Source of the DNA: an uncultured Gammaproteobacteria bacterium
GTDB taxonomy: Bacteria; Patescibacteriota; Patescibacteriia; SBBC01; CAIJZX01
Direction of reading: 5' to 3'
DNA length: 58,764 nt
Assembly (NCBI GenBank): GCA_964383765.1
Contig: CAYLHT010000006.1
Location: 1 to 58,764, forward strand
Positions 29,142 to 51,172 of this stretch are shown here, one piece after another. The position numbers were made by a program, and so were the translations under genes. The stretch's first letter is position 1; each line of letters begins with the position of its first letter. The notes below the pieces were generated by a model. It saw only the letters and a program-made list of their open reading frames with translations, was not told the origin of the DNA and made no database searches.

Positions 29142-29175
29142 GCCTGACTTGATATACTGAGGGCCTACAATATAT

Positions 29176-30543
29176 ATGTACTGGGCCAATTTCCTCCACT
29201 TCTACCAGCCACCGACGCAGAAGAAATACTGGATCGATAAAATCACGGCCGAATCGTACCGGCCCCTGGTTCAGGGTTTGCTGCAGCACCCCAAGGCGAA
29301 GGTCACGCTCAACATCAACGGCGTGCTCGACACCCTGCTCGACCAACACGGCCACCGCGACGTGCTCGACGGTATTCGACAGTTACTCGAGCGCGGTCAA
29401 CTCGAACTAACGGGTTCGGCGATGTACCATCCGCTGCTACCGATGCTGCCGGACGATGAAGTCATTCGGCAAATTGAATTGAACACCGCCACCCACCGCA
29501 AGTACTTCGGCGACCTCTACCAGCCCAAAGGTTTCTTCCCGCCGGAGATGGCGTTTTCGAAGCACGTGGCCGAGATCGTGGCGAAGCTTGGGTATGAATG
29601 GATTATCGCGGATGAATTATCGTGCGCCGATCAACATCGGCAAGTTGACTACAGTAAAATTTACACGGTCGAGGGTTTAGATGATTTTGCTATATACTTC
29701 CGCGAACGTGCCACGAGTTTCAAAATTCTGTCCGGTCAACTCGGCACCGGTCAGTTATTGATTCAGGGTCTCAGTGATCGGTTGAAAAAAGACGAATACT
29801 TGTTGACGGCCATGGACGGCGAAACCTTTGGTCATCACCGCCCGGGTTTGGAATTGTTACTCTTTGAAATTGCCGATTCGCCGCAGATTGAGAATGTCTT
29901 GATTACCGATCTACCGAAGCACTTCACCAAGCGCGAGGCGATTGACCCGCGACCGTCGACCTGGGCCCTGATGGAAAAAGATTTGGAGCGCAACAAACCG
30001 TTTTCGCGCTGGCTCGACGATGATAATCCCATTCATAAAGGCCAGTGGGAATTAACACGGCTCGCGATCGACGTCGTGCACAAAGCTAAGTCGACGACCA
30101 AGGGTTTTTCAGCTGCCCGAGAACTCTTGGACCGCGCGCTCCACTCCGATCAATACTGGTGGGCCTCGGCCCGACCATGGTGGTCGCTCGAAATGATTGA
30201 GCGCGGCGCCAAGGAATTGCGCGACTCAATTTTGAAAACGCCGGGCGTCAGCGCCAGCAACAAAACCAAAGCGCAAAAACTCTACGAGCAAGTCATCTTC
30301 ACGGGTTTTGAATGGCAGCGCGAAGGCATTGTCGAACAACTCGCCCATCAAGAAGACGAACAGATCCGCCAGCAAACCGACCAAGCCGTTCCGCAACTTC
30401 CAAAAAAAGAAATTGACGCGATGGTGGCACGCTTGGACAAAGAACGGGTGCAGTTAGCCGAGCGCCAAGAATACGAACGGGCCGCTCAAATTCGGGATCG
30501 GATTAAAGAGCTCCGGTCGTATGAAGCGAAGCCGAACACGTAG
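29176..30543 (+). CDS. glycoside hydrolase family 57 protein with C-terminal UVR-like coiled segment
   Basis: HFYQPP and AMDGETFGHHRPG motifs. The C-terminal QEYERAAQIRDRIKELR resembles a UVR motif. Confidence 0.75.
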   Translation: MYWANFLHFYQPPTQKKYWIDKITAESYRPLVQGLLQHPKAKVTLNINGVLDTLLDQHGHRDVLDGIRQLLERGQLELTGSAMYHPLLPMLPDDEVIRQIELNTATHRKYFGDLYQPKGFFPPEMAFSKHVAEIVAKLGYEWIIADELSCADQHRQVDYSKIYTVEGLDDFAIYFRERATSFKILSGQLGTGQLLIQGLSDRLKKDEYLLTAMDGETFGHHRPGLELLLFEIADSPQIENVLITDLPKHFTKREAIDPRPSTWALMEKDLERNKPFSRWLDDDNPIHKGQWELTRLAIDVVHKAKSTTKGFSAARELLDRALHSDQYWWASARPWWSLEMIERGAKELRDSILKTPGVSASNKTKAQKLYEQVIFTGFEWQREGIVEQLAHQEDEQIRQQTDQAVPQLPKKEIDAMVARLDKERVQLAERQEYERAAQIRDRIKELRSYEAKPNT

Positions 30544-34865: not shown

Positions 34866-34913
34866 TTGTCCTAACGCGACCCTAGCACAGCCTCACAAAA
34901 TAAGCAATAATGG

Positions 34914-34954
34914 TATTATTATACGAACCAAGTTCGCATAATAACGAGATAGGC
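34914..34954 (+). other. attI-like site / first junction (G|ATAGGC at 34948/34949)
   Basis: GATAGGC (34948-34954) is the exact complement of GCCTATC, which opens attC-like site 1. It is preceded by the hairpin TATTATACGAAC-caa-GTTCGCATAATA (34917-34943). Confidence 0.6.
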
Positions 34955-35066
34955 GAAATAGTGCCCTTATTGACAGGAATTTAGTTTCTCGATAAGATTC
35001 TGTGTTCTTTCACAACAAATACTTTTAGGAAGCTTGCTCACGTCGCTTGGAAAGGAGGGTGCCACA

Positions 35067-35294
35067 GTGTTCACGACTCAAAGTACGCTTTCGGTGCTCA
35101 CTGGCTTCGGGTTCATCGCCGCCTGGATTTTTATCGGTTTCTTCGGCATTCACCTCTGGGCGGCCTGCTTTTCAGTGCCTCTTACCTACCGCTGGAAAAC
35201 GTGGCTTGCGATCGTTTTTGGACCCCTGACGTTTTGCCTCGTGGTCGTGTGGATCATCGCGGCTGCAGTGGACGATGTCGTCGAAGATCTGTGA
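35067..35294 (+). CDS. cassette 1: small two-TM membrane protein
   Basis: GTG start 7 nt after AAGGAGGG, in frame with ORF 35034..35294. TTGACA-17-TAAGAT promoter-like boxes at 34969-34997. Confidence 0.5.
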   Translation: MFTTQSTLSVLTGFGFIAAWIFIGFFGIHLWAACFSVPLTYRWKTWLAIVFGPLTFCLVVVWIIAAAVDDVVEDL

Positions 35295-35368
35295 ACGCTC
35301 CTTGTTTCCTTTGCGGGAAGGCCTCGCTTTCCCGCTTCCTAAAAGTATTTGTTGCCGCTAGCACAGTA

Positions 35369-35424
35369 TGCACTACCTCGCCTATCAGCGCGTATACGCC
35401 AAATAGGTTCGGCGTATGACGCGC
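35369..35424 (+). other. attC-like site 1 (short simple-hairpin class)
   Basis: GCCTATC-A-GCGCGTATACGCC-aaataggttc-GGCGTATGACGCGC-AAAC-GTTGTAT. One extrahelical G in the 3' arm. Confidence 0.8.
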
Positions 35425-35504
35425 AAACGTTGTATGCCATAGCGAACATGAAGAGATAAGTGCCTCGATCTCGGGGCGCGTGCCCCAAGTCCGAGGCACA
35501 CATG

Positions 35505-36088
35505 TTCGCCACCGCATACAACAGCGGATATGAGACGAAGGAAATCGGGTTTGGTTTTTAGTAAGTGAAAAAATAGCAGGCTTGGTAGCCTGTTATTTCG
35601 CTTCAGTGAAGATAGTTTTTCAGTCGTTAATCTTCTTCGGAATACACATCACTAATTTCTCGCCGAAGATTATCTAATTCATCATACTTTGCCTGTGATT
35701 CTACAGTAACAACGGGGGTGCTTGCGCCAGGCTTGGGCATGATCTTGCTCATTTCTTCATCGAGTTTTTCCACAATTTGTGGCATACGCATATTATCAGT
35801 AACTTCAATAAACTTTGCCGCACGGTCCCGAAAAGCTTTTTTTGATTCTTCCGTCATTGGTCCCCAAGTCCGACCCTCAAAATCTTCCGGCATATATAGT
35901 GACATTATTAGTTAATATATGGGAAAAATAACATGTGCCCACAAATAAAACAAGTGTTCATTGTAGCTTATTGACAATGTAGCAACCAAACCCGATTTCC
36001 TTCGTGCAAATTGCTACCTCGCTCCGGCGGTGGTAAAATTGTACCGCCGGATCGAAACAGCAACTTCTCATATCCGCAAACGTTAGGA
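35505..36088 (+). other. attC-like site 2 (branched class E, carries an ORF in helix-2 loop)
   Basis: ATACAAC-AGCGGATATGAGA...TCTCATATCCGC-AAAC-GTTAGGA. The inner helix CGAAGGAAATCGGGTTTGG / CCAAACCCGATTTCCTTCG encloses 35627..35905. A third hairpin lies around GGCGGTGGTAAAATTGTACCGCC. Confidence 0.7.
35627..35905 (-). CDS. hypothetical acidic protein (92 aa) located inside attC-like site 2
   Basis: AT-rich ORF. A minus-strand terminator hairpin (AATAACAGGC..GCCTGCTATTTTTT) lies at 35558-35587. Confidence 0.5.
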   Translation of the reverse strand: MSLYMPEDFEGRTWGPMTEESKKAFRDRAAKFIEVTDNMRMPQIVEKLDEEMSKIMPKPGASTPVVTVESQAKYDELDNLRREISDVYSEED

Positions 36089-36191
36089 GAAATAACGCCT
36101 CGCTTGTCTATTGACAGACAAGCACATATATGCCAGGGTTCCCTGGCTCATTAAGCTAACCAAAAAAGTGCACTCCTTCAGGAGGTGCGGC

Positions 36192-36584
36192 ATGACAGCG
36201 AAAGATCCGGAGAAAACTTGGGGGATCGCCCTAAGAGCCGCTAAGAACTATCTCGAGGGCGAGATCCAGAAGCATGAGTGTGGCGATCTTCTGGTAAAAC
36301 TGGAAGATCCCAAGGTTCGTCTCCTCGTGGGCCGCAACGTCAAGTTCCTGCGAACCGTGCAAGGTTTAACAGGATCAGAGCTTGAAGTGGTTGCGGGGTT
36401 GTCCAAGAACCTGGTCGGGAAATTCGAGTCAGGGGTCAAGGTCAACCCACGGTATGTGCTCATGATGGCAGCCACGTTCAAGGTTCTGCCGCACCTCCTG
36501 TTCCGGGAAGACCTGATTGAGCACCTGCGTGGCGTGGTCGCTCAAGAAATCAAAAGGTTCGGGGAGGAAAATCCTCGGTCATAG
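36192..36584 (+). CDS. cassette 3: XRE-family helix-turn-helix protein
   Basis: Trimmed to the ATG after AGGAGG. LRTVQGLTGSELEVVAGLSKNLVGKFESGVKVNPRYVLMMAATF is an HTH_XRE-like motif. Confidence 0.6.
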   Translation: MTAKDPEKTWGIALRAAKNYLEGEIQKHECGDLLVKLEDPKVRLLVGRNVKFLRTVQGLTGSELEVVAGLSKNLVGKFESGVKVNPRYVLMMAATFKVLPHLLFREDLIEHLRGVVAQEIKRFGEENPRS

Positions 36585-36655
36585 CACGTTGGAGGAAGGG
36601 GGCTCGCTCTCTTCCTCCACCCCTTTTTGTTATATTAGAAGCGAGGCGTTACATC

Positions 36656-36794
36656 TCCTAACAGCGCGTAACCGACGCGGTTTCTGGCGTCCGGCGAAGC
36701 CTGCCGCTTGCGAAACCGCTACATTTGCTGGTGTTTAGCCGCTCCGCGGCGTATGATAACACCAGCAAAAGTCGGTTACGCGCGGACGATAGCT
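36656..36794 (+). other. attC-like site 3 (139-bp three-helix class A)
   Basis: TCCTAAC-AGCGCGTAACCGAC...GTCGGTTACGCGC-GGAC-GATAGCT. Inner hairpins are GCGGTTTC..GAAACCGC and TGCTGGTGTT..AACACCAGCA. Confidence 0.85.
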
Positions 36795-37057
36795 GAAATT
36801 CCCTTTTTATTTTTCCGGTTTATCTACCGGAAATACAAAAAACTTTTTTAATTTCTTCTGTTATACTTTTTTTACTTTCCTGCCTGAATTAACATTATTG
36901 CTAGCTCAGGTAGGAGCACCAGCAAGATTCTGCTGATGCTTAAGGTGCTGTGGTCTCGCCCAAGGATTATGGTTTGCCTTGGATCCCCACTCTAGGGCAG
37001 GCGTCGCGGGCGCGACTTAAAGGCCTGACCTTTGGCTCGGTCCAGACTTGTCGCCGA

Positions 37058-37660
37058 TTATCCCTTGAGGAGATAATCGAGCATGAGATGCCAGGACTTC
37101 ACCCAGTCAAAATGTTCCTCACGGAACACTTCGGGATCGGGCTTGTCCTTGCAAATCTCGTACAAGTCGTTGTGACCGAATGGCTTGACCGGGTCACCGC
37201 CGCGCTCATAGGCATTGATCCAGCCCCTGTTGTTCGTCAGGAGCACCCGGCACTCGCCGACCATGAAAGGCGTCGGTTCAGCCTCACTCGCGTTGAAAGC
37301 GTCGAGGCAGGCAGAGGCGGGATGAGCGTGATGGTTCGAGTCGGTCAGCAGGCCTATGCACTTGGCGCCGTTTTTGATTGCGGCGTAAAGTACGAGGAAG
37401 ATGCCAACAGGCATCTCCTGGCCAGCATACGACATCCCCCGGTTGCCAAGGAGCGCAGCGCTGGCTGGCATGAGCAGATCACAGAGCACCACGTCGTACT
37501 GCTGACGGACGCTCTGGATGCTCTCCAGGTGCTCCCCGATCACGAACATGGCCTGCATCGCTTCGTCATACGACGAAACGGCGGTCACATCATGGTCGGC
37601 GAGCTGCGCTTTGGCAGCCCCCAAGTGTTTGGGATTGTCGTCGATCACGAGGATCTTCAT
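37058..37660 (-). CDS. cassette 4: CheY-like receiver-domain protein with unknown C-terminal extension
   Basis: MKILVIDDNPKHL...YDVVLCDLLMP has receiver-like acidic residues. GGGAGGTGA SD, TTGACA hexamer at 37744-37749 (minus), GC-rich. Confidence 0.55.
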   Translation of the reverse strand: MKILVIDDNPKHLGAAKAQLADHDVTAVSSYDEAMQAMFVIGEHLESIQSVRQQYDVVLCDLLMPASAALLGNRGMSYAGQEMPVGIFLVLYAAIKNGAKCIGLLTDSNHHAHPASACLDAFNASEAEPTPFMVGECRVLLTNNRGWINAYERGGDPVKPFGHNDLYEICKDKPDPEVFREEHFDWVKSWHLMLDYLLKG

Positions 37661-37829
37661 GCGGTCACCTCCCGATTGGAGTGGGTTTTGGTCAAAGGTC
37701 TAGCTAAAACGAGACCGGCCAGCATAGCATGGCCAATTCTTTTTGTCAATAGTTAGGCCAACTATAGAAATTAAAAAAGTTTTTTTGTATACGTTCCGTC
37801 AAAACGGAACAAAATAAAAAGGGAACATC

Positions 37830-37954
37830 AGCTATCAGCGCGTAAGCGGCTCCGGCTTACTCCGTTCCTCCGTAAGCCTGCGCCTAAGTTGCGCGAGTGT
37901 CGCCTTCGGCATATTATACACTCGCGCAACTTCGCTTACGCGCGGACGTTGTGC
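37830..37954 (+). other. attC-like site 4 (125-bp three-helix class B)
   Basis: AGCTATC-AGCGCGTAAGCG...CGCTTACGCGC-GGAC-GTTGTGC. Inner hairpins are GGCTTAC-tccgttcctcc-GTAAGCC and TTGCGCGAGTGT..ACACTCGCGCAA. Confidence 0.85.
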
Positions 37955-38045
37955 GCCATCGTGTTTTTTTGTAAAACAAATGAGACCCTTATTTATACTC
38001 CTTGGGTCTCAGTAGGAGTGTGGGCGCCTAGCCCTTCTATGAACC

Positions 38046-38393
38046 TTACGATTTCAGATATGCGGGCTTGTCCTCGACGAACAGTCGCCCCTTGCGCAGG
38101 TCCGTAGCGTAGACGCCCTCGACCATACGAAGGTGCGGCCACTTGCTGTCGGTGACATACGCGTTGAAGTGCCAGACATCAGCCGCACCGTGCAGAACGT
38201 CGTCGTTTTCTGCGCCAGCCGTGGTCGACCCTCGCGCCAGTTGATCGATGAACATGTGGATCGCGCCCAAGCCACCGAGATGCATGATGACTGGGAGGCG
38301 ATGGCCGTGCTGGTTGGTTTCTCCAGCACCCAACGAAGCGAGCAGATTATACTTGCTCGGTCCGTCGACGACGTTCAACGGTTGCTTTGACAT
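38046..38393 (-). CDS. cassette 5: hypothetical protein (115 aa), GC-rich
   Basis: Trimmed to MSKQPLNV..., preceded by GAAGGAGA. TTGACA hexamer at 38513-38518 (minus). Confidence 0.5.
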   Translation of the reverse strand: MSKQPLNVVDGPSKYNLLASLGAGETNQHGHRLPVIMHLGGLGAIHMFIDQLARGSTTAGAENDDVLHGAADVWHFNAYVTDSKWPHLRMVEGVYATDLRKGRLFVEDKPAYLKS

Positions 38394-38554
38394 AACGAAT
38401 CTCCTTCTGTAAGGAGCCTGGCGCACTTGTACGGCGGCGCCCACCCTTCTCCGTTTCCGGAGGGCTCGATCATCCGATCGAACAAAGTAGGTTAGCATGA
38501 AATGCTGCAATTTGTCAAGCCCGAATGTTTCTTAAAACGAAAAAACACGACAGC

Positions 38555-38693
38555 GCACAACAGCGCGTAACCGCCTCGGTTTCTGGCGTCCGGCATAGCC
38601 GTCCGCTTCCGAAACCGCTACATTTGCTGGTGTTTAGCCGCTCCGCGGCGTATGATAACACCAGCAACAGTCGGTTACGCGCAAACGTTGTCC
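38555..38693 (+). other. attC-like site 5 (class A)
   Basis: GCACAAC-AGCGCGTAACCG...CGGTTACGCGC-AAAC-GTTGTCC. Near-identical core to sites 3, 7 and 15. Confidence 0.85.
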
Positions 38694-38779
38694 GAAAATT
38701 TGCCTCCCTCGTTGTAAGATAAGCGCGGTTTCCATAAAATAAAGATGGTTGTTACTCTTCCTAAGGTATAGCAGACAAT

Positions 38780-39373
38780 ATGTCCCTATTTAACAAACGT
38801 TTAGATTCGTACGATAGTCAGGTACTCCAAACTCTTGAGAACCAAGTGAACGTATTATTCTCAGTACTTGGAGAATCGCCAAATGAGATGCATAAATTGG
38901 CCAAGAAGTTTCTTGATCAAAGTATTAGGTTATCAGAAAAGAATGGATATCGACATAAAACCAATCTTGGTGATGAAAGAATAAAGGATGTGACTTGGCT
39001 AAACAAACGAATAGCTGAAGGGTTGACCGCGGAAGACTGTAAAGATTTCTGGAATCGTGCACACGAAGTGATCTTGGGTGAATTTATCATTAATGATGTT
39101 TGGAGAAGGGGTCGAGCAAATGCATACAAGCTAACTGGGATGTCCTGGGAAGATGCTGTTAAAAGGGTTCAAAAAGATCACATCATTTATGGCGAACCAG
39201 ATCAAATTGAAGGAGGCTTCATTGGCGACAGTCGGTATATTTATCCTGAATTTGCGAAAAGATTTGAACACTGGAGAAGTACTGTCACCACCGAGCAAGA
39301 AGTAGAGCTATCTCAAAAGTATGAGACATATAATGCAATGGTTAGGGATCTGATCATTAAGAACAAAATCTGA
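38780..39373 (+). CDS. cassette 6, gene 1: hypothetical protein (197 aa), AT-rich
   Basis: Clean ORF with no recognisable motifs. Confidence 0.5.
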   Translation: MSLFNKRLDSYDSQVLQTLENQVNVLFSVLGESPNEMHKLAKKFLDQSIRLSEKNGYRHKTNLGDERIKDVTWLNKRIAEGLTAEDCKDFWNRAHEVILGEFIINDVWRRGRANAYKLTGMSWEDAVKRVQKDHIIYGEPDQIEGGFIGDSRYIYPEFAKRFEHWRSTVTTEQEVELSQKYETYNAMVRDLIIKNKI

Positions 39374-39381
39374 AGACGCAA

Positions 39382-39789
39382 ATGCCACAAACGAAATATG
39401 ATCAATCAATAATAAAAGAAGCGGTCCGCCACATTCAGAACGAATGGGATAATTTCAAGATATGTTATCAACAGTTGCACAGCCCAAACAATGCTATTTA
39501 CTTTGAATGTTTCTTATTGCACGCTCGGAATTTATATGATTTTTTCTTTACACCCAAGAAAATAAATGATGATGTTACTATAACCGACTTTGTTCCTTCT
39601 CCTTTAAAAGGTAATTCATACGTATTCCCAAAAGAGGCGATAAATAAACAGCTAAGCCATATCACATATTCAAGAGTTATTAATCCAATAAATTTATTCC
39701 CGGAACAGGATCAAATCTATTCCTACATCCACAACACACTTATCGATTACAATAATATTGCAGATGAGAGATACCGAATAACGGAATGA
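39382..39789 (+). CDS. cassette 6, gene 2: hypothetical protein (135 aa), AT-rich
   Basis: ORF 8 nt downstream of gene 1, probably co-transcribed. Confidence 0.5.
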   Translation: MPQTKYDQSIIKEAVRHIQNEWDNFKICYQQLHSPNNAIYFECFLLHARNLYDFFFTPKKINDDVTITDFVPSPLKGNSYVFPKEAINKQLSHITYSRVINPINLFPEQDQIYSYIHNTLIDYNNIADERYRITE

Positions 39790-39827
39790 AACCGCGCTTA
39801 TCTTTATGGGTCGGTCGGCAAATCTAC

Positions 39828-39885
39828 GGACAACAGCGAGTCATACGAAATAGCAAGTACTTCGTATGACTCGCAAACGTTGTAC
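39828..39885 (+). other. attC-like site 6 (short simple-hairpin class)
   Basis: GGACAAC-A-GCGAGTCATACGAA-atagcaagtac-TTCGTATGACTCGC-AAAC-GTTGTAC. Confidence 0.85.
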
Positions 39886-39959
39886 GAAATGGAGCGAGGT
39901 TTATGTAAATGAAGAGACCGCCCACAACGCGTTAGCGTGGGGCGGCCTTTGTCGCTGAT

Positions 39960-40262
39960 CTACAGCAACTTGAACGTACCTACAGGGCGATCGGCGTTTT
40001 CGTCCGTGGACTCGACGACCCATACGTTCGGTACCACACCCGGAACGTACTTGAGACGTCGGATCGTGACCCCTTGGAACCGGGGCGAAGACACATACAG
40101 CGCGATGCCTTCCTTGTCGCCGTACCCGATTGAAGTCACTGTTCCCGCGATCATGTGAGAGCTACCGAACAGGAACGGCCGCCCCACGATCTGCGTCGGA
40201 TTGTCGGGCAAACCACAGTCCGTAAGTGCTTGGCCGAACTGCGCTTCGTTCAACTGGAACAT
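39960..40262 (-). CDS. cassette 7: hypothetical protein (100 aa), GC-rich
   Basis: Trimmed to MFQLNEAQ..., preceded by AAGGAGGA. TTGACA-17-TTAAAT boxes at about 40332-40360 (minus). Confidence 0.5.
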   Translation of the reverse strand: MFQLNEAQFGQALTDCGLPDNPTQIVGRPFLFGSSHMIAGTVTSIGYGDKEGIALYVSSPRFQGVTIRRLKYVPGVVPNVWVVESTDENADRPVGTFKLL

Positions 40263-40380
40263 CGCAATCCTCCTTGTCGTTGCTACGTACACAGAGAGTG
40301 GCTGGCCAAACCTGGTGCGAACGAACTGGGCATTTAAGCACAGTTTCTCTGTACTGTCAAGGCCAACCTCGCTCCAAATC

Positions 40381-40519
40381 GTACAACAGCGCGTAACCGA
40401 CGCGGTTTCTGCCGCCCGGCGAAGCCGTTCGCATTCGAAACCGCTAAGTTTGCTGGCGTTAAGCCGCTCCGCGGCGTATGATAACACCAGCAAAAGTCGG
40501 TTACGCGCGGACGATAGTC
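40381..40519 (+). other. attC-like site 7 (class A)
   Basis: GTACAAC-AGCGCGTAACCGAC...GTCGGTTACGCGC-GGAC-GATAGTC. Confidence 0.85.
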
Positions 40520-40807
40520 GAAATATTTATTTTCTTTTTTCGGGCTAACGCCCGATTGTTTACAAAAATTTTCCAATTTCTTTTTCTCTTGAATAGAGGG
40601 GAAGTGGGTGTTTTCTCCGCTTCGCTGCGAAAACGCTTTGTTTTTGAGGGGAATCTAAAATAGCAAAACGAAACTGGGGAAAGCATGTTAATTCGCTGAA
40701 ATACGTCATTTCTCATGAAAATAAAGCTCTTCATCATATACCGGCTTGACAAGTAATATACATACGTTATACCCTTACTCAGGGTATATAATTATAAAAG
40801 GTGGTAT

Positions 40808-41029
40808 ATGGCAGCGGAATTAAGCAAACGCGACCGTTTCAAAAAACTGGCTGTTTATCGTACAAACGAAGTTTTGAAGCGACTCAAGGTCCTAGGAAAT
40901 TGTTCAAATAGAAGTGCGTACGAATACACTGAGGAAGAAGTAAATAAGATTTTTCAAGAAATTGACCGCCGGACTAAGGAAGTAAAGTCAAAGTTTTATT
41001 TTCCTAAAAATCGAAACTTTCAGCTGTAA
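40808..41029 (+). CDS. cassette 8, gene 1: small basic protein (73 aa)
   Basis: First ORF of a tightly coupled three-gene operon (TAATG overlap with the next gene). Promoter-like TTGACA-16-TATACC at 40746-40773. Confidence 0.5.
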   Translation: MAAELSKRDRFKKLAVYRTNEVLKRLKVLGNCSNRSAYEYTEEEVNKIFQEIDRRTKEVKSKFYFPKNRNFQL

Positions 41030-41925
41030 TGAAACATAACTTACCAAAACTTGCGTATAAAACTCCCTACGGCAAGATGTTCCAGGGCCTTGCTGAGCAG
41101 GTTCTTGATTCATCCAAGTTGAAACGGTATGAAGGCAAAGTTCAATTGATTTTCACTTCCCCGCCGTTTCCTCTAAACCGAAAGAAAAGGTACGGCAATA
41201 TTAAAGGTGATCCATACATTAGTTGGCTCACAAGCTTTGCGGAACTTTTTAAAAAATATTTAAAGAAAAGCGGTTCAATTGTAATTGAAATGGGAAATTC
41301 ATGGGAGCCGGGAGAGCCTATTATGTCCACCCTTGCTCTCCGTTCTTTGATCGCCTTTCACGACGTTGGAAACTATAATTTGTGCCAACAATTTGTCGTG
41401 TATAATCCGGCGCGTTTACCAAGTCCAGCGCAATGGGTCACCATTGAAAGAATTAGGGTAAAAGATGCATTTACCCACTTTTGGTGGATGTCGCCTTCTG
41501 TTAACCCAAAAGCAAGCAACAAACGAGTTTTGTCAGAATACAGTGCTTCTATGAAGCGTCTTTTGGCTAGTAAAAAATATAATGCCGGTAAAAGACCTTC
41601 GGAACATAACATTGGTGCAACGTCTTTCTTAAAAAACAACAAAGGCGCGATTAGTTCAAATGTCATTACGGCATCAAACACGAATTCCAGTGATAATTAC
41701 CAAAAGTATTGTCGAGAAAAGGGCATTGACCCTCACCCTGCAAGGATGCAAATGAAGGTCGCCGAATTTTTTATTAAGTTCCTCACTAATAAAAATGATT
41801 TAGTGCTTGATCCTTTTGCGGGGAGTAATACAACTGGAGCAGCGGCCGAGTATCTAAAACGCAAATGGATTTCTATTGAACCGTTGAAGTCGTATATTCA
41901 AGGTTCTAAAGGAAGATTCTTATGA
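41029..41925 (+). CDS. cassette 8, gene 2: DNA methyltransferase, beta-class (N4-cytosine or N6-adenine)
   Basis: Motif IV FTSPPFP comes near the N-terminus and motif I LDPFAGSNTTGAAA near the C-terminus (order IV then I). SPPF is typical of N4C/N6A enzymes. Confidence 0.75.
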   Translation: MKHNLPKLAYKTPYGKMFQGLAEQVLDSSKLKRYEGKVQLIFTSPPFPLNRKKRYGNIKGDPYISWLTSFAELFKKYLKKSGSIVIEMGNSWEPGEPIMSTLALRSLIAFHDVGNYNLCQQFVVYNPARLPSPAQWVTIERIRVKDAFTHFWWMSPSVNPKASNKRVLSEYSASMKRLLASKKYNAGKRPSEHNIGATSFLKNNKGAISSNVITASNTNSSDNYQKYCREKGIDPHPARMQMKVAEFFIKFLTNKNDLVLDPFAGSNTTGAAAEYLKRKWISIEPLKSYIQGSKGRFL

Positions 41926-44195
41926 AACTTGATGAGTTATTCAAACGATTTTCGATTGGAGAAGATATTGATGTTCTAAGTTCTGCCTTAGAAAAGTTTG
42001 TTTCAGAAAACAGAGACGCGGATTGGCATCCTATCGGGGATAAAATCAATAATAAAGGCCCGATTGAAGTCTCAGCTGACCCAGGGCGAGCATTAGTTGA
42101 AAGAGTTACTAATGCTGCTGACGCAGTTTTAGAGCTTGAGCATCATAAACATAACGGACAACCCGAGTGTCGAAGTCCACGTGAAGCGGCAACAGCTTGG
42201 CTGAATGTTCCCAATGAGGGCTTAAGTAAATTATCTACCGCCGAGCGTCGATCTTTGGCTCAAAAAGTTAAAGTAACTATCCAAAAGGGACGTACACGCC
42301 AAAACAGGATTTTTTCAGTGCGAGATTTAGGTCTCGGCATTCTTCCAGAGGACATGGGAAAGACAATCCTTTCACTTAATGAAAGCAATAAACTAGAAAA
42401 GCACTACCTGGCCGGTACTTACGGGCAAGGAGGTTCAGCAACTTTCAGTGTTAGCCAACTCTCATTTATTGCCAGTAGGAAGGCCGGTCAGAATAAAGTG
42501 GGATTCACAGTGGTGAAGTATCAAGAACTGGATCCTGAGCGGTACAAAACGGGTAATTATGTTTATCTAAGGATTAATGATCAAGTTCCTGTATTAGAAA
42601 CTAGTGATCAGGCCTTCCCTGCTGGAACACTAGTTAGGCATTTTGGTTATGACCTTAGTAAATATAACTCTTCGCTGGGCTCAGCAAGTGTATATGGCTT
42701 ATTAAATCAAGTTCTTTTTGACCCCGTGCTTCCAATTTGGCTCGACGATGACGTACAGGGATATCGAAGAACTATTAAAGGTTCCCGGAATGCGCTAAAT
42801 GGAGCTGTTGATGAAGAAGGCAAGGGCCCGTCACTTGTTCACAATATGCCTATGTTTTTTGTCGAACTGCCGGAGTATGGGCGCATAGGAATTGAGTATT
42901 GGGTTCTCGAAAGACCAACTAGTGCAGGAAAGAATCCTGCTGAAGCGTTTGTTAATTCGTCAAAACCCATTGTTCTTTCCTTAAACGGACAGAATCACGC
43001 TGAGTTGCCCAAGCTTCTCATTACCAAAGAGGCTGGAGTTCCGTACCTTGGTAACAGAGTTATTGTGCATATAGACTGCAACAGCTTGACTGGTTATGGC
43101 AAACGTAAACTTTTTTCCTCAAATCGTGAGGATGCTCGTCAGGGCCATGCACTTGAGTTAATCCGCAAAGAGGTTGTTAAAGCTCTCAATTCGGACGATG
43201 AGCTTATTAAGTTGAATAATGAAGCAAAACAATCGGTGGAAAGACAGCGAGACGAAAGCACCGTAAAGGAGATGAAAGCAGAAGTCGCTAGATTATTGAG
43301 GCTACAGGGACTCGAAATTGCAGAAGATGTTGGTTCTTCGGGGAAAAAAGGTAAAACTTCTGGAAAACGCCCTGTCCATCCAGGCCCTGGGCCATCAGTC
43401 CTTCCCCCTATAGAAATTCATGAACCACCAACTTATATTAATATTCTTTGGGATCCCGAAAAAACAATTTCATTCTATTCTGGTCAGCGACGTTATTTGC
43501 GGATTATTACTGACGCGAGCGAATCGTATCACAATGTCACAAACCCCAACCTATCGAAAGTAAATGTAATTATTTCTGGTGGAAATGATATACAGATGAA
43601 AGGAAGCACTCCTCTAAAAGGAGGAAGAATGCGTTTAATTCTCCAAGGTTCCTCTGATAAAGTTGGCACAAAACTAAAAATACGAGTCGAGCTTCAAAGA
43701 TCGGGCATGCCAGCATTATTTGATGAAAGAGAAATGGAGATGGTAAAAGAACCTGAGAAACCTAAATCTGAGTCCAGACCGACTTTGCCACCTTTTGAGG
43801 TCATTCCTGTTGGCCAAACTGACACAGACACGTGGTCAATGTTACAGTGGCCCGAAAACGTAGCCGGAGTTGCGTGTTCGGCTCTGGAAGATCAGGGCAC
43901 GCATACTGTTTATTACAATACTGATTTTCCTAAGTATGCTGAGCAGAAGGCGCAGCTTGAATCTAGAGATGTATCAATGTCTCAGTCTTTCACGAAGCGC
44001 TACGAGATTTGGCTTGCAGTCTATTCTTTATTGATGAAACAAGATGAAGAAAACGGCGTGAATAAAGACATAGAAATTGACCCAGACGTTTTGTCGAATA
44101 TTGAACGTCAAGAAAGAATTAGGACAGCAGTAATGTCAGTCATGTTCGCAAAGCGAGAGGTTCAATTTGAAACCAACACTGAAGCCGAAGAATAA
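41922..44195 (+). CDS. cassette 8, gene 3: large GHKL-type ATPase-like protein (757 aa)
   Basis: Bergerat-fold motifs ERVTNAADAV (N box), RDLGLGILPEDM (G1) and GTYGQGGSATF (G2). The long C-terminal region is uncharacterised. ATGA overlap with the methyltransferase gene. Confidence 0.55.
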   Translation: MKLDELFKRFSIGEDIDVLSSALEKFVSENRDADWHPIGDKINNKGPIEVSADPGRALVERVTNAADAVLELEHHKHNGQPECRSPREAATAWLNVPNEGLSKLSTAERRSLAQKVKVTIQKGRTRQNRIFSVRDLGLGILPEDMGKTILSLNESNKLEKHYLAGTYGQGGSATFSVSQLSFIASRKAGQNKVGFTVVKYQELDPERYKTGNYVYLRINDQVPVLETSDQAFPAGTLVRHFGYDLSKYNSSLGSASVYGLLNQVLFDPVLPIWLDDDVQGYRRTIKGSRNALNGAVDEEGKGPSLVHNMPMFFVELPEYGRIGIEYWVLERPTSAGKNPAEAFVNSSKPIVLSLNGQNHAELPKLLITKEAGVPYLGNRVIVHIDCNSLTGYGKRKLFSSNREDARQGHALELIRKEVVKALNSDDELIKLNNEAKQSVERQRDESTVKEMKAEVARLLRLQGLEIAEDVGSSGKKGKTSGKRPVHPGPGPSVLPPIEIHEPPTYINILWDPEKTISFYSGQRRYLRIITDASESYHNVTNPNLSKVNVIISGGNDIQMKGSTPLKGGRMRLILQGSSDKVGTKLKIRVELQRSGMPALFDEREMEMVKEPEKPKSESRPTLPPFEVIPVGQTDTDTWSMLQWPENVAGVACSALEDQGTHTVYYNTDFPKYAEQKAQLESRDVSMSQSFTKRYEIWLAVYSLLMKQDEENGVNKDIEIDPDVLSNIERQERIRTAVMSVMFAKREVQFETNTEAEE

Positions 44196-44327
44196 ATAGT
44201 TGTTTGCTAGTCGCCGGGCATTCACCCCTTTAATTCCCCTCTGCCCGGCGACCGATTGAGAAAAAGAAATTGGAAAACTTTTGTAAACAAGTCCCGCTGC
44301 CGCGGGACAAAATAATATAAATACATC

Positions 44328-44453
44328 GACTATCAGCGCGTTTGCGGCTACGGCTCGCTCCGTTCCTCCGCGAGCCTTCGCCTATATTGCGCGGGTGTCG
44401 CCTTCGGCATATGATACACCCGCGCAACAATCGCAAACGCGCGGACGTTAGGC
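44328..44453 (+). other. attC-like site 8 (class B)
   Basis: GACTATC-AGCGCGTTTGCG...CGCAAACGCGC-GGAC-GTTAGGC. Inner hairpins are GGCTCGC-tccgttcctcc-GCGAGCC and TTGCGCGGGTGT..ACACCCGCGCAA. Confidence 0.85.
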
Positions 44454-44503
44454 GACATTTTACTCAAAAATAATTATCTGTATATTGTGGGACGAAAAGT
44501 TTC

Positions 44504-44989
44504 ATGATCAAAGCATTTGTCAGCGACTTTTCCAGAGTCCTGTTATCACCGAAAGATGACAGCTACACCGAAGGACTAAATGCGCTGCATAAAAAACTGT
44601 CATCCGGTGGAGATTATGACTTTTGGTCATACTTTCGACTAAATCAAGATTTGCTTACTTTTTACAAAAAACTTAGCGCGGATATTCCTATTTATATGTT
44701 TACCACCGAGTATATTCAGGAACATCCAGCGCTTCAACCTGAACTAGCTGGAGTTTTCAAAAAAGTTTTTAGTGGGGCGGGTTTGCACTTGGAAAAAACT
44801 GATCCGCAATCATACTACTTCATCGCCAGAGAGCTTGGACTTAACACAAATGAAGTCTTGTACTTAGATGATAAACAAGCAAATCTTGATGCTGCTAAAA
44901 AAGCTGGTATGACTGTTATCGCTTATGAAGCAAACGAACAAGCACAACAGGATATCACTAAAACATTGAAAAACTTTTCGTCCCAATAA
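44504..44989 (+). CDS. cassette 9: HAD-superfamily hydrolase-like protein
   Basis: FVSDFSRVLL (motif I-like) and LYLDDKQANLDAAKKAGM (motif III/IV-like). Confidence 0.55.
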   Translation: MIKAFVSDFSRVLLSPKDDSYTEGLNALHKKLSSGGDYDFWSYFRLNQDLLTFYKKLSADIPIYMFTTEYIQEHPALQPELAGVFKKVFSGAGLHLEKTDPQSYYFIARELGLNTNEVLYLDDKQANLDAAKKAGMTVIAYEANEQAQQDITKTLKNFSSQ

Positions 44990-45014
44990 GTTAAATTATT
45001 TTTGAGAAAACGCC

Positions 45015-45646
45015 GCCTAACACGGGCTAGCCGGAGAGCGAACGAAATACTACTTTAATCTATGAGTTTCTACATTATTATTCGAGGTCCGCTCGGCTGC
45101 GGAAAATCTACGATTTCAGAAAAGCTATCTCAGCAATTCAATGCTGAACATATTGCAGTTGATCGCGTTCTTGACGAACACAATCTTACCGAAGACAAAG
45201 AGGACGGTTACATTTCACAAACAAGTTTCAAGCGAGTGAATGAATTAATCGCTCCGAAAGCACAATCATTATTAGAAAATGGAAAAACCGTTATCTTTGA
45301 CGGGAACTTTTACTGGAAATCACAGCTTGATGACTTAATTCAACGCCTGGATTTCCGCCATTACGTTTTCACACTGAAAGCACCACTTGAACTCTGCATC
45401 GAACGCGATCAAGCGCGAGACAAAACTCATGGGAAAGACGCAGCCGAGGCCGTATACAATAAATCAACTTCTTTTGAATATGGCACGTTGATTGATACAA
45501 CTGGAATTATTGACGAAACGGTACAGAAAATTCTTGAACATTTGCCAATAACAAAGTAGTATTTCGTTCGCTCTCCAAAATTGCGTAAGTGTACGCTTCG
45601 CGATAGTATACACCTACGCAACTTCGGCTAGCCCGAAACGTTGTGC
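45015..45646 (+). other. attC-like site 9 (class B-related, carries an ORF in helix-2 loop)
   Basis: GCCTAAC-ACGGGCTAGCCG...CGGCTAGCCCG-AAAC-GTTGTGC. The 20-bp helix GAGAGCGAACGAAATACTAC / GTAGTATTTCGTTCGCTCTC encloses 45062..45559. The third hairpin TTGCGTAAGTGTA..TACACCTACGCAA resembles class B. Confidence 0.7.
45062..45559 (+). CDS. P-loop kinase-like ATPase (AAA_33-like) located inside attC-like site 9
   Basis: Walker A IIIRGPLGCGKSTISEKL. Small nucleotide/metabolite kinase-like size (165 aa). Confidence 0.6.
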   Translation: MSFYIIIRGPLGCGKSTISEKLSQQFNAEHIAVDRVLDEHNLTEDKEDGYISQTSFKRVNELIAPKAQSLLENGKTVIFDGNFYWKSQLDDLIQRLDFRHYVFTLKAPLELCIERDQARDKTHGKDAAEAVYNKSTSFEYGTLIDTTGIIDETVQKILEHLPITK

Positions 45647-45762
45647 GCCATAAAATCTCGGCTTCGAATATTTAAAGAAGGTTTCCTGAATCAGATCATT
45701 ATGGTCACATCGAAAATCATGGCTTATACTTAGAACAGTCTTTTCAATAAACCTACAAATTT

Positions 45763-46392
45763 ATGCTCAAAAAAGCTTTCCTGCTTGCGGTAATAGCCTT
45801 CAGCATTGCCGTCACCGCTATTCCTGCTTCAGCCGCAACGAAAACAAAAATCTACACAAACCGGTCACTGGGATTTTCGTTGAAGTACAATGCGAAATTC
45901 CAATGGTCGACTGGTGGGTGCGACAATGCTCATAATAATATTTTTTTTCAACTCAATCCGTCCGATAAACTCAAATTGGAGAAAACTCAGCGTACCTATG
46001 ATATAGGTGTGCAATTATTGAATTTTAACGATGACGGGTGTTCTTTTGCTGTAACAATAGGACCGAAACTAAGAAAAACCTTACGGACAAGGGGTTGGGC
46101 TTCATTCATTTCTCAATATATAAAAGAAGTTGTCGACCCGAATCCATTCGAATCTGTTGCGGTTCAGGCGTACGGCTTAAATGGATATACCGCAACCATT
46201 ATTACAACCCATGAAAAGGGAGTTCAATATGTTGGTGGAACTGTCGAACACCATATTCTTGTCACTTCTGATAAAGTACATGTTTATGACATTAGCGATC
46301 AATTATATTCACCAAACTACAAAAAAATATTTTCCCCCAATCCCTACGCATACGACTTTCGTGCACTCGCACAAAGTTTCCGTATTCTCTAA
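45763..46392 (+). CDS. cassette 10: secreted hypothetical protein
   Basis: Signal peptide MLKKAFLLAVIAFSIAVTAIPASA. No recognisable domain. Confidence 0.5.
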   Translation: MLKKAFLLAVIAFSIAVTAIPASAATKTKIYTNRSLGFSLKYNAKFQWSTGGCDNAHNNIFFQLNPSDKLKLEKTQRTYDIGVQLLNFNDDGCSFAVTIGPKLRKTLRTRGWASFISQYIKEVVDPNPFESVAVQAYGLNGYTATIITTHEKGVQYVGGTVEHHILVTSDKVHVYDISDQLYSPNYKKIFSPNPYAYDFRALAQSFRIL

Positions 46393-46439
46393 GCTTTCTT
46401 GAAACAGTCACCTGAAGAACAACGCCGAGATTTTACGGC

Positions 46440-46551
46440 GCACAACACGGCGTATACGACATCCCTTCCTCTCTTCGGGGGTAACTCGCACAGCTCGATA
46501 TTCTACCCCCTGCGTTCAGTCGGGACGGTCGTATACGCCGAAACGTTGTAC
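46440..46551 (+). other. attC-like site 10 (112-bp class C)
   Basis: GCACAAC-ACGGCGTATACGAC...GTCGTATACGCCG-AAAC-GTTGTAC. Inner hairpin GGGGTAA..TACCCC. Homologous to site 13. Confidence 0.8.
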
Positions 46552-46631
46552 GCCATGGCGAACATGAAAGTATAAGTGCCTCGACCTCGGGGCGCGTGCC
46601 CCAAGTCCGAGGCACACATGTTCGCCACAGC

Positions 46632-47612
46632 ATACAACAGCGGATATGAGACGGAGGAAATCGGGTTTGGTTTTTTTATAGCAAGAAACCCCCGGAAGGC
46701 ACAGTTGTCCTTGCGGGGGCTGCGATCACGATGATCGCGAAGGTTCATTCAATGGGTAGAGAGTGTTCAGGCCAATGCGACTCGATGGGTCTCGCGGGAC
46801 AACCCATGCAGTCCGGCATACGTAGCCAGGATCTGGCTGGCTGTCATCACCTTACACGGATTCTCAGCATTCACGTCCATTTCGACGTCGTTGATCATGC
46901 CAGATTCGTAGATCCGCACATGAGGCTCGCCGATCTTGTCGTACGCACGGAAGACCGTGAACACCAGGTAATGCGGAAACCACATGGTGGCGCTTCCCTC
47001 GCCGCCGTACAGCCGGATGGTCGCGGTCACTCGCCGAAGCTCGTGCCGAACGTCCTGCGCTGGGGCATCGGGGAACGACCGCTCGAATGGGCCGATGAGA
47101 GCGTCGATCTCGACGATTCGGAACATGTCCGAATAGTACTTCAGCTCATTCTCGGCGCGGTCCTGACGCGAGCCGAAGCCTTTTCGGGACACCGGCGGGG
47201 CCGTTACGTTGGAGCGGTAGAGCTGGATTCCAGGACCGTACAGCTTGGCCAGCTCGGCTCGCAACAGCTCCTCTGCGAGTGACACTGAAAAGGGTCGGTC
47301 GGAACGATGCAGTTTCTTGAACATGGTATTCCTCCCATCACGGGAGCGTATAGGGATATTCCTACACGGCTACCATCTCGGCAGCGAACTAGCCAAGAGT
47401 ATTAACCTCTCTGCTAAATCGCTACCGAGGTACGGATGGAAGAGCTGAAATGAACAAACAGGTCACACTACACTATATACTGGCATTTGTCAATGCCAGA
47501 CACAAAAAACCAATTCCCATTTCCTCCGTCCAAATTGCTGCTTCGTTCCGGCGGTAGTATAATTGTACCGCCTCCACTTCGCAGCAACTTCTCATATCCG
47601 CGGACGTTGTAT
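46632..47612 (+). other. attC-like site 11 (class E, carries an ORF in helix-2 loop)
   Basis: ATACAAC-AGCGGATATGAGA...TCTCATATCCGC-GGAC-GTTGTAT. The inner helix CGGAGGAAATCGGGTTTGGTTTTTT / AAAAAACCAATTCCCATTTCCTCCG encloses 46767..47324. Homologous to site 2. Confidence 0.7.
46767..47324 (-). CDS. hypothetical protein (185 aa), GC-rich, located inside attC-like site 11
   Basis: GGGAGGAA SD 7 nt before the ATG. TTGACA hexamer at 47488-47493 (minus). Preferred over the antisense ORF 46731..47282. Confidence 0.5.
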   Translation of the reverse strand: MFKKLHRSDRPFSVSLAEELLRAELAKLYGPGIQLYRSNVTAPPVSRKGFGSRQDRAENELKYYSDMFRIVEIDALIGPFERSFPDAPAQDVRHELRRVTATIRLYGGEGSATMWFPHYLVFTVFRAYDKIGEPHVRIYESGMINDVEMDVNAENPCKVMTASQILATYAGLHGLSRETHRVALA

Positions 47613-47688
47613 GAAATATACTTTTCCTTTCCGCCTATCGGCTACTGCTTTTCTGAATGAGCAAATTTGATTAGTTACAAAAAGCAAC

Positions 47689-50472: not shown

Positions 50473-50559
50473 TAATGACGTGGCCCTGCTGTCACGGTTA
50501 ATCAAATTTGCTCATTCAGAAAAGCGCCTGATACAATCAGGAAAGGAAAAGTATAAATC

Positions 50560-50616
50560 ATACAACAGCGCGTATACGATATACTACGTACAATCGTATA
50601 CGCGCGGACGTTAGCT
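50560..50616 (+). other. attC-like site 12 (short simple-hairpin class)
   Basis: ATACAAC-A-GCGCGTATACGAT-atactacgtaca-ATCGTATACGCGC-GGAC-GTTAGCT. Confidence 0.85.
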
Positions 50617-50719
50617 GAAATGTTGCTCTTGACATGAGGACGCTATCGGTCCAAAATCGGTTATTCGAACTTTCACAATAAAAATATTCTTAGGGGGCGC
50701 CCATGAAAGGAGGAAGTGG

Positions 50720-50941
50720 ATGTCTGAGAACACCAGGCTTCTCTTGGCACGCGTCTATCTTTTGGGCGCGATCGTGATTCTGGTTCTGCTGTTGTTCAAC
50801 GAAGAAAGCCACGTCCTCATTCTCACGCTTATCGGCTGGACCCTCACGCTTCCGATCATCTCGTTTGTTGGTGACCAGATCACAATCAACAAAGCAATTA
50901 AACGAGATGAGGAAAACAGCCGCACAACAGCACCCGAGTGA
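50720..50941 (+). CDS. cassette 13: small two-TM membrane protein (73 aa)
   Basis: AAAGGAGGAAG SD before the ATG. Hydrophobic ORF. Confidence 0.5.
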   Translation: MSENTRLLLARVYLLGAIVILVLLLFNEESHVLILTLIGWTLTLPIISFVGDQITINKAIKRDEENSRTTAPE

Positions 50942-51026
50942 ATCGCCCTTTCTAGAGGAGATGGAACGCCCCCATCTTCTCGCCCCCTAAGAATATTTTC
51001 TCTTTCACATAGCTACGCAACACATC

Positions 51027-51138: not shown

Positions 51139-51172
51139 GAAACTTTCGTCTCATTTTCCTCAAGATTGAAAC

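Follow-up and report, generated by a model that had tools for sequence, protein, structure and literature searches.

Two covarying hairpin sites in an integron-like cassette array of a Patescibacteria contig

The DNA considered here is contig CAYLHT010000006.1, a stretch of 58,764 nucleotides (nt), called the window below, from a bacterium assigned to the Patescibacteria, or Candidate Phyla Radiation (CPR). It contains a gene for a tyrosine recombinase, an attI-like site with similarity to dif, and an array of cassettes with 15 sites that are all located on the plus strand and share one design (Table 1). The fourth and eighth of these sites (37830-37954 and 44328-44453, termed sites 4 and 8, or class B) are the subject of this work, and both lie where an initial annotation of the window had placed them. 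They are probably paralogous sites of the attC type, which close cassettes of an integron-like array served by the recombinase and the dif-like attI.

Sites 4 and 8 are 92% identical in a 130-column alignment, and each is built as an imperfect inverted repeat (R''-L''...L'-R') that can fold as a hairpin, as attC sites do. The initial annotation ascribed one junction design to both, and folding bears this out: the two sites share one three-way junction, with an outer (L) stem and two arms, in both strands. As single-stranded DNA, both strands have folding energies of -40 to -44 kcal/mol and z-scores of -5.3 to -6.9, and 0 of 200 shuffles were as good. In the written-out structure of 43 pairs, 97.7% of the cells form standard pairs, a share that drops to 24-49% when the 3' partners are slid by 1-3 columns as a control. 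The initial annotation had also listed five paired changes, spread over all three helices. We find seven pairs that are changed on both sides and fully compensated, with two in the L stem (AA/TT in site 4, TT/AA in site 8), three in arm 2 (TA/TA to CG/CG, plus C-G to A-U, columns 25-53) and two in arm 3 (A-T to G-C, plus A-T to T-A, columns 60-105). Only one pair is broken, a G-C that becomes A.C on the top strand, and its bottom-strand counterpart is a T.G wobble. Upstream of each site lies a further hairpin, H2, which keeps its position and covaries in all four known members of class B. A role of H2 as a terminator was ruled out, because it has a T-tract before it and an A-tract after it on both strands.

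The array sites were located by repeat finding, a strict pattern scan and covariance models. Their design reads NNNAAC (or ATC), A, L'' stem, interior, L' stem, NNAC and G↓TT, where the arrow marks the crossover and G↓AT, or once G↓TA, may take the place of G↓TT. As in attC sites, the crossover lies between G and TT and marks the start of the next cassette. In sites 4 and 8 the core is G↓AT, and the last letters of the two intervals given in the initial annotation (37949-37954 and 44448-44453) are already part of the next cassette. In a test of the cassette boundaries, the 8 nt ahead of the final C of R'' were set against three stretches for each site. The match to the first 8 nt of the site's own cassette has a mean of 7.4/8 and is perfect in 9 of 13 cases, the junction of attI and cassette 1 included, as against means of 5.1/8 for the 8 nt past the site's own crossover and 4.7/8 for unrelated flanks. 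At attI, the 8 nt past G34948 equal the reverse complement of the R'' of site 1 (8/8), and the first 8 nt past the crossover of site 3 equal that of site 4 (ATAGCTGA, 8/8). This complementarity between each R'' and the first bases of its own cassette shows that the crossovers by which cassettes entered fell precisely at G↓TT or G↓AT. The match is the scar that would be expected if a cassette had once been circular, with a complete site, and had been inserted after the G. It also accounts for the CTATC, instead of CTAAC, in sites 4 and 8, because their cassettes start with ATAGCTGA and ATAGTCGA, respectively.

Table 1. Features of the recombinase locus and the cassette array, in window coordinates.
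Feature	Position	Strand	Remarks
Tyrosine recombinase gene, 283 aa	34014-34865	-	divergent from array; Pfam Phage_integrase 3.7e-43
attI-like, dif-like site	34932-34959	+	GTTCGCATAATAACGAG↓ATAGGCGAAAT; crossover after G34948
Cassette array	34949-53712	+	15 co-oriented attC-type sites
Array sites, first five (approximate extents)	35382-35433, 35514-36087, 36658-36792, 37830-37954, 38557-38691	+	
Array sites, next five (approximate extents)	39830-39883, 40383-40517, 44328-44453, 45557-45643, 46442-46549	+	
Array sites, last five (approximate extents)	46634-47610, 50562-50614, 51029-51136, 52616-52668, 53586-53716	+	
Cassette 4	36789-37948	+	starts ATAGCTGA, ends with site 4
Hairpin H2, upstream of site 4	37793-37810	+	GTTCCG-TCAAAA-CGGAAC, then A-rich tract to R''
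Site 4, R'' box	37832-37836	+	CTATC
Site 4, L'' half of 11-bp L stem	37838-37848	+	GCGCGTAAGCG; pairs with 37933-37943
Site 4, arm 2	37849-37883	+	loop 1 (TCCGTTCCTCC) at 37861-37871
Site 4, arm 3	37886-37932	+	mini-hairpin GCC-TTC-GGC 37902-37910; bulge ATATTAT 37911-37917
Site 4, L' and crossover	37933-37948	+	L' (CGCTTACGCGC), 4-nt unpaired GGAC, crossover G at 37948
Cassette 8	40514-44447	+	starts ATAGTCGA, ends with site 8; boundary match 8/8
Hairpin H2, upstream of site 8	44291-44308	+	GTCCCGC-TGCC-GCGGGAC
Site 8, core	44330-44447	+	R'' 44330-44334; L'' 44336-44346
Site 8, arm 2	44347-44381	+	loop 1 at 44359-44369
Site 8, arm 3	44384-44431	+	mini-hairpin 44400-44408; bulge ATATGAT 44409-44415
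Site 8, L' and crossover	44432-44447	+	L' 44432-44442; GGAC 44443-44446; crossover G 44447
Site 9	45557-45643	+	class B-like arm 3: CGC-TTC-GCG mini-hairpin, bulge ATAGTAT; normal R' end

The recombinase resembles integron integrases (IntI) most closely. Its best model is that of the integron integrases (TIGR02249), with 218.9 bits in two stretches and a cutoff of 265, and XerA_Arch follows with 210 bits and a cutoff of 220. VchIntIA/IntI4 (2a3v) is the closest sequence match in the PDB and also the best Foldseek match of the predicted structure, with XerA second. The catalytic residues RKHRH-Y are present, and R144, K169, H233, R236, H259 and Y268 are invariant in 21 homologues. The additional domain that is specific to IntI proteins, with the I2 helix near patch III, is lacking. 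Residues 192-211 (20 aa) replace residues 183-245 (63 aa) of 2a3v, which makes the protein about 43 residues shorter, and no helix is predicted for 191-209 in the AlphaFold2 model (pLDDT 83.7). Database homologues number more than 7,500 at E < 1e-30. The top matches have 60-76% identity and about 273 aa, and all of them that carry a name are from Patescibacteria. The initial annotation had considered, among other options, that a recombinase recognizes the loops of the sites. As regards a recombinase context, the IntI-like recombinase, the attI and the crossover signature at the cassette boundaries bear it out.

The attI site can be written as AGTTCGCATAA-TAACGAG-TTAGTCGAAAT, with a centre of 7 nt, and resembles in both arms the E. 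coli dif site (GGTGCGCATAA-TGTATA-TTATGTTAAAT). In all four loci examined first, TTCGCATAATAACGAG was present upstream of the recombinase gene, followed by cassettes with the same site design. Many CPR loci have degenerate copies of attI (CGYATARWAACGAG), some 100 nt upstream of their recombinase gene, with counterparts at L001:629-644, L002:9893-9908 and L003:9917-9932 (homologous loci are designated by L numbers). Two promoter-like sites lie close to attI in the window. One of them, CTCACA-N16-TATTAT with a TG (34892-34919), is located upstream of the attI crossover, is directed into the array and could be an analogue of the integron promoter Pc. The other, TTGACA-N17-TAAGAT (34970-34998), lies within cassette 1. 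Downstream of the recombinase gene, two related genomes have a tRNA gene between flanks of about 16 nt that are perfectly complementary (CCAGCACCAGTTTGGCC...GGCCAAACTGGTGCTGG; L001:2935-3052 and L003:12207-12325, both on the minus strand). It had been a candidate attC site and was rejected, being a tRNA gene with a long inverted repeat around it.

Species-representative genomes were scanned with an alignment of the recombinase, which gave 80 loci. A family covariance model, built from 17 sites, had 64 matches at E <= 0.01, and 17 further matches came from six loci that were reached through close homologues. The 68 matches outside the window are all upstream of a recombinase homologue and on the opposite strand. 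Of the 31 CPR-type loci that extend 900 nt or more upstream of the gene, 28 have matches, and these share the layout typical of attC sites, in which the sites point one way and adjoin an integrase gene with its attI. The flavobacterial, proteobacterial and archaeal recombinase loci had no match to the family model. As read from these loci, co-oriented sites and the module of recombinase, attI and array recur across CPR genomes. The contigs of 21 out of 52 CPR-type loci (among L005-L053) stop within 900 nt upstream of the recombinase gene. Contig ends near the gene would be expected if repeats there break assemblies, and their number suggests that the arrays routinely break short-read assemblies and are hence under-represented in CPR metagenome-assembled genomes.

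Across 63 distinct sites of the family, 89.3% of the cells are paired, compared to 59.6% in shuffles and 33-41% in slid controls, and 603 cells carry double changes, compared to 185 in shuffles. The stems also covary among closer homologues: in four class B members from three genomes, 12 pairs are changed on both sides and 95.9% of the cells pair. Judged by these alignments, it is base pairing, not sequence, that is conserved in the L stem and in both junction arms. The family consensus is TCnnnTAAC-A-ncGnaTATncG; GcTC...nCC; CAaATT...AACtT; CgnATAtnCnn-aaAC-GTTa. Since the three-way junction and the junction nucleotides are part of this consensus, they are the norm of the family, and not a trait of class B. 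The spacer is a conserved 1-by-4 internal loop, in which a single A faces NNAC and the L'-R' arm holds the surplus bases, and the TTG at the base of arm 3 is conserved throughout the family.

The initial annotation had drawn a contrast between fixed loops and changing stems, and here the outcome is divided. Between sites 4 and 8, loop 1 (TCCGTTCCTCC) is the same and the stretch taken for loop 2 differs in one base. This stretch is no true loop, but a 3-bp mini-hairpin (GCC-TTC-GGC) followed by a 7-nt A/T-rich bulge. Differences affect 15 of 78 paired and 2 of 34 unpaired columns (Fisher p = 0.09), and the contrast is not significant for this pair of sites alone. Two true homologues of class B exist outside the window. 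L271:3805-3933 has the loop 1 sequence TTCGTTCCTCC, arm 2 GGCTTGC/GCAAGCC, the mini-hairpin CGC-TTC-GCG and the bulge ATAGTAT, and L269:8472-8597 has an arm 3 identical to that of site 4, with loop 1 swapped for a small hairpin (CCC-TATC-GGG). With all four members, 17 of 34 unpaired columns are variable, versus 23 of 78 paired ones, and the mini-hairpin itself covaries (GCC-TTC-GGC versus CGC-TTC-GCG). Unpaired columns thus vary at least as much as paired ones, and fixed loops are not a property of the class. Because the loops vary among the four members, most of the loop identity of sites 4 and 8 reflects shared recent ancestry.

Loop 1 is private to close relatives. It was absent from 203 loci that were screened, was seen later in L271 only (10 of 11 bases), and is replaced in L269. 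The two loop motifs matched viral contigs 2 and 62 times, and none of these matches was attC-like by the family model. A metagenome scan with the 5' pattern of class B (CAGCGCGTNNGCGGCT) gave only GC-rich chance matches, and none of the loci passed E = 0.1 with the class B model. What stands of the proposed loop conservation is the TTC or TCC triloop, the A/T-rich bulge and the junction nucleotides, which recur at phylum-level distances. The search for loop motifs in other CPR contigs, which the initial annotation had suggested, was accordingly negative for loop 1 beyond L271, and positive for the composite of mini-hairpin and bulge. The latter is present as GTCGCCCTTCGGGCATATTATAC, or close variants of it, on quite different stems in three sites of the Peregrinibacteria locus L039, the recombinase of which has 49% identity. 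Bulges similar to those of class B occur in a dozen loci.

Several features of the sites differ between the two strands. The 63 sites contain 150 hairpins that have a triloop and a stem of 3 bp or more. TNC on top, which is GNA on the bottom strand, occurs 37 times, and GNA on top 5 times, as compared to 8.1 and 6.4 in shuffles. The top-strand TTC of class B corresponds to GAA on the bottom strand, a GNA triloop, and such triloops have exceptional stability in DNA when a 5'-C...G-3' pair closes them (PMC13037366, PMC3201870). At the base of arm 3, 49 of 56 sites keep an A.C mismatch in the top strand, to which a G.T wobble corresponds in the bottom strand. Folded with DNA parameters, the bottom strand has the lower energy in 67 of 78 sites, with a mean advantage of 2.3 kcal/mol (p = 5e-11). 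With RNA parameters, it is again the antisense (bottom) strand that folds better, in 71 of 77 sites. The asymmetries in triloops, mismatches and energy favour a folded bottom DNA strand, as in classical integrons.

The cassettes are mixed in content. Cassette 8 encodes a DNA methylase (N6_N4_Mtase, 1.7e-32) and an open reading frame (ORF) of 757 aa, further genes of the array are for a HAD hydrolase and a P-loop kinase and for a methyltransferase and an aminotransferase, and many cassette ORFs have no Pfam match. The GC content is 0.39-0.46 in the array and 0.52-0.57 in the flanks, at least 10 points lower in the array, which counts in support of a foreign origin of the cassettes. Among the other sites, site 13b (52616-52668) is short, has the G↓TA core and lies between two ORFs, and its R'' matches the cassette start in 8 of 8 positions. 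Site 9 lacks the R''/L'' partner, and its 3' part folds locally (TTCGG-CTAG-CCGAA). The variant recurs at L271:9096-9201 and L272:2-107, adjoining the attI in another genome. Because it is conserved in another genome, it may be a distinct class of site, and not a product of decay. The two class C sites (35514-36087 and 46631-47608), of which the 5' parts are about 93% and the 3' parts about 85% identical, enclose different minus-strand ORFs (35627-35905, 92 aa; 46767-47324, 185 aa) without Pfam match. Each of these ORFs is located within the loop of the 21-bp arm 2 stem (CGAAGGAAATCGGGTTTGGTT / AACCAAACCCGATTTCCTTCG), which is in effect a gene inside a recombination site, swapped within a conserved frame.

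The L271 array (positions 1-9850 of a 980-kb CPR contig) is rich in defence-type genes, with an AlwI-family restriction enzyme, three methylases, SduA_C (Shedu) and GmrSD_N with HNH. About 130 nt of non-coding DNA upstream of site 8 (44200-44330) are near-identical to L271:3934-4065 (minus strand). The stretch consists of a hairpin (GTCGCCGGGCA...TGCCCGGCGAC), an A-rich spacer and TTTTGTAAACA. The proteins that adjoin it and its counterpart are unrelated (BLASTP E = 3.5). Different genes are therefore accompanied by one 3' module, about 250 nt long, a point of relevance to how cassettes form. Outside the array, the tandem paralogous stretches in 16044-16749 and 28244-30183 resemble adjacent genes that have been duplicated, with 300 nt at 75% identity and a spacing of 406 nt, and with several blocks of 50-70 nt at a spacing of about 1264 nt.

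If sites 4 and 8 are attC-type sites, a site would act as a folded single DNA strand, most likely the bottom strand. The platform for the recombinase would be formed by the R box, the 1-by-4-nt internal loop (A opposite NNAC) and the L stem, and the three-way junction would take the place of the variable terminal structure of a classical attC site. The bottom-strand C-GAA-G, a GNA mini-hairpin, would nucleate folding. Selection on foldability would explain why changes come in pairs. The conservation of the loops probably has two sources, the recent common ancestry of the two copies, for loop 1 and most of the rest, and a real constraint on the C-TTC-G triloop, the adjacent A/T-rich bulge and the junction nucleotides.

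Some observations weigh against this interpretation. The recombinase lacks the I2 segment, and the gain of I2 is, according to Escudero et al. (2020, eLife, PMC7790495), the step by which integron integrases passed from double-strand to single-strand recombination. Classical attC sites have extrahelical bases on the R''-L'' arm (PMC2727003). Of the expected two or three such bases, and of an unpaired spacer of about 5 nt in each arm, sites 4 and 8 show neither: the L stem has 11 perfect pairs without extrahelical bases, and the surplus unpaired bases are on the L'-R' arm. The asymmetry in wobble pairs is absent outside the conserved A.C position (56 vs 48). Contigs from the runs that hold the window or L039 showed no alternative cassette joints, at a depth of about 5 and with contigs that break at repeats. 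The pair counts of the family are inflated by alignments that were fitted to the structure of the model, although the margin is large all the same, and every sequence is a metagenomic contig. It may tentatively be suggested, as a possibility that we rate at clearly less than even, that a CPR-wide integron lineage is run by an Xer-like recombinase without I2, as a living relative of the transition from Xer to IntI or as an independent invention of single-strand cassette capture. In such a lineage, a conserved junction would replace extrahelical bases and I2 in strand selection and recognition, by means of the bottom-strand GNA mini-hairpins, the TATAAT-like single-stranded bulge and the 1-by-4 loop.

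The lack of I2, and a XerA score that nearly equals the IntI score, also fit a system of double-stranded sites, in which a CPR Xer protein uses attI as a dif or dif-like site and recombines the duplex L'-spacer-R' core, with the hairpins as a by-product and the cassettes as modules that exploit Xer, like IMEX elements or the pdif modules of Acinetobacter. The resemblance of attI to E. coli dif in both arms and the very wide distribution of recombinase homologues in CPR (60-76% identity; more than 7,500 at E < 1e-30) point in the same direction. However, the pairing of R'' with R', of L'' with L' and within the arms is maintained by hundreds of double changes in the 63 sites, for which a duplex core site would not select, and the strand asymmetry in triloops and folding energy points to a folded single strand. 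We therefore give this explanation little credence. Paired changes could also result from a mutational mechanism, templated repair or strand switching in a quasi-palindrome, together with gene conversion between paralogous sites. Class B is indeed a mosaic: L269 has the arm 3 of site 4, L271 has the arm 3 stem of site 8 with another mini-hairpin and L stem, and one position in arm 3 has only two alleles (GAGTGT/ACACTC and GGGTGT/ACACCC) in three genomes. Such a mechanism is compatible with attC-type sites and does not replace them as an explanation, and it leaves the persistence of the fold over phylum-level divergence, with wholly different stems, unexplained. As the sole cause of the paired changes it is improbable.

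The initial annotation had mentioned an RNA function of the transcribed sites, and a terminator, a processing or stability element or a regulatory structure, with the link to the recombinase as secondary, would be in keeping with the strongly conserved structure, with the position of the sites at the 3' ends of mostly co-oriented ORFs and with the CCUCC in loop 1, which is similar to an anti-Shine-Dalgarno sequence. It is nevertheless highly improbable. The sense RNA folds worse than the antisense in 71 of 77 sites and carries the conserved A.C mismatch, no U-tract follows the structure, and the tips are triloops with a GNA complement, and not UUCG tetraloops. Reading CTTCGG as a UUCG tetraloop was rejected, because it would leave its flanking bases unpaired and does not accommodate the TCC and TGC tips. 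In the window, Rfam 15, which has no attC family, detects at the gathering threshold only 23S, 5S and one tRNA, and no family at the sites. The complementarity between R'' and the cassette start is moreover a scar of DNA recombination, and not an RNA feature. A promoter at the apex of arm 3, which need not exclude a function in recombination, is unlikely on balance. Read in the top strand, it would consist of TTGCGC-N17-TATTAT (or TATGAT) and express the cassette that follows. In the bottom strand, the TATAAT or TATCAT of the bulge could start an antisense or primer RNA, or the hexamer of the bulge could be bound as a pre-melted -10 element in the folded strand. Hexamers similar to the -10 box (TAnnnT, at least 5/6) are enriched in arm 3, with 30 per strand versus 14 +/- 3.5 in shuffles, and a perfect TATAAT occurs 11 times on the bottom and twice on the top strand, but the motif is quasi-palindromic and scores on both strands for this reason, and is missing from many sites with a short arm 3. 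The TTG at the base of arm 3, kept throughout the family, is spaced 17 nt from the hexamer in classes B and C and in site 9. The spacing is 18 nt in two sites of L039, as against 21-24 nt in class A and several other sites. A decayed last site of L002 (8430-8545, minus strand, without NNAC-GTT) has TTGACA-N17-TAATGT directly before a gene for a protein similar to pilins of type IV secretion systems (T4SS). In class B, by contrast, the -35 candidate fits in 3/6 positions only, and a generic sigma-70 scan does not call these sites. The scan finds 38 sites in the array, not above the 29.5 +/- 5.1 expected from shuffles, and a stronger promoter candidate is located at 44459-44486, ahead of the ORF that follows site 8.

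Xer recombinases that act at dif, and the elements that exploit them (IMEX, pdif), share with the CPR system a recombinase of the Xer type without I2 and the dif-like character of attI. The attP of the CTX phage is a folded single strand that mimics a core site, and in this it is similar to the CPR sites, whereas pdif modules are 28-bp duplex sites without a fold. For the resolution of chromosome dimers, Xer acts on a 28-bp site at the replication terminus, with a centre of 6-8 bp between two inverted binding arms. Unlike Xer/dif systems, the CPR arrays have many independently bounded cassettes with hairpin sites, and the recombinase gene is fixed beside the insertion site.

The closest counterparts of the sites are the attC sites of sedentary chromosomal integrons, above all large ones such as the Vibrio cholerae repeats (VCRs) (Bouvier et al. 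2009, PMC2727003). In both, an imperfect inverted repeat R''-L''...L'-R' of about 120 nt has a branched terminal structure, the bottom strand is favoured, and crossover occurs at G↓TT, with the first bases after it belonging to the next cassette. In both, each cassette has its site at the 3' end, all sites point the same way, the array adjoins an attI and a recombinase gene that is transcribed divergently, and paralogous sites of one array are similar, with structure conserved over sequence. In contrast to these classical attC sites, the CPR sites have an L stem without extrahelical bases, a spacer in the form of the conserved 1-by-4 loop with its surplus on the L'-R' arm, and a three-way junction with nucleotides conserved in the whole family, so that the terminal structure is not really variable. 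They also occur with G↓AT and G↓TA cores, and their recombinase lacks the IntI insert. With IntI (VchIntIA, 2a3v) the recombinase shares the best match in sequence and fold, the conserved RKHRH-Y and the divergent orientation of the gene relative to the array, but it is about 43 residues shorter across the additional domain that bears I2, and its TIGR02249 score does not reach the cutoff. Archaeal integrons (Ghaly et al. 2022, PMC9668308) are likewise integron-type arrays in metagenome-assembled genomes of little-studied lineages, but the archaeal IntIs keep the additional domain (PMC9668308). The tips of arms 3 and 2 on the bottom strand (C-GAA-G, C-GGA-G, T-GCA-A) are similar to d(GCGNAGC)/GNA mini-hairpins (PMC13037366, PMC3201870), which in the CPR sites are embedded in a larger, natural recombination site, where they may serve as folding nuclei. 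In the literature searched, which did not include subscription journals, we found no description of integrons in CPR. Neither the paper on archaeal integrons (PMC9668308) nor that on IntegronFinder 2.0 mentions CPR.

Compensatory changes between sister attC sites are what is expected of an integron, and would be ordinary on their own. It is the setting that is not. The sites are ordinary in their likeness to attC sites, but belong to an integron-like system that departs from classical integrons in its recombinase and in the architecture of the sites. Arrays of the attC type, with the crossover signature of integrons, are combined here with a recombinase that lacks I2, and the combination recurs across Patescibacteria. 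The arrays may also account for the many CPR contigs that stop a short way upstream of the recombinase gene. Should the system be active, single-strand recombination of cassettes would be possible without I2, or a conserved DNA junction could replace it, and the system would be a concrete one in which to study how integrons arose from Xer-type recombinases. The cassettes, which include restriction-modification and other defence genes, point to a route of gene capture in ultra-small bacteria with reduced genomes.

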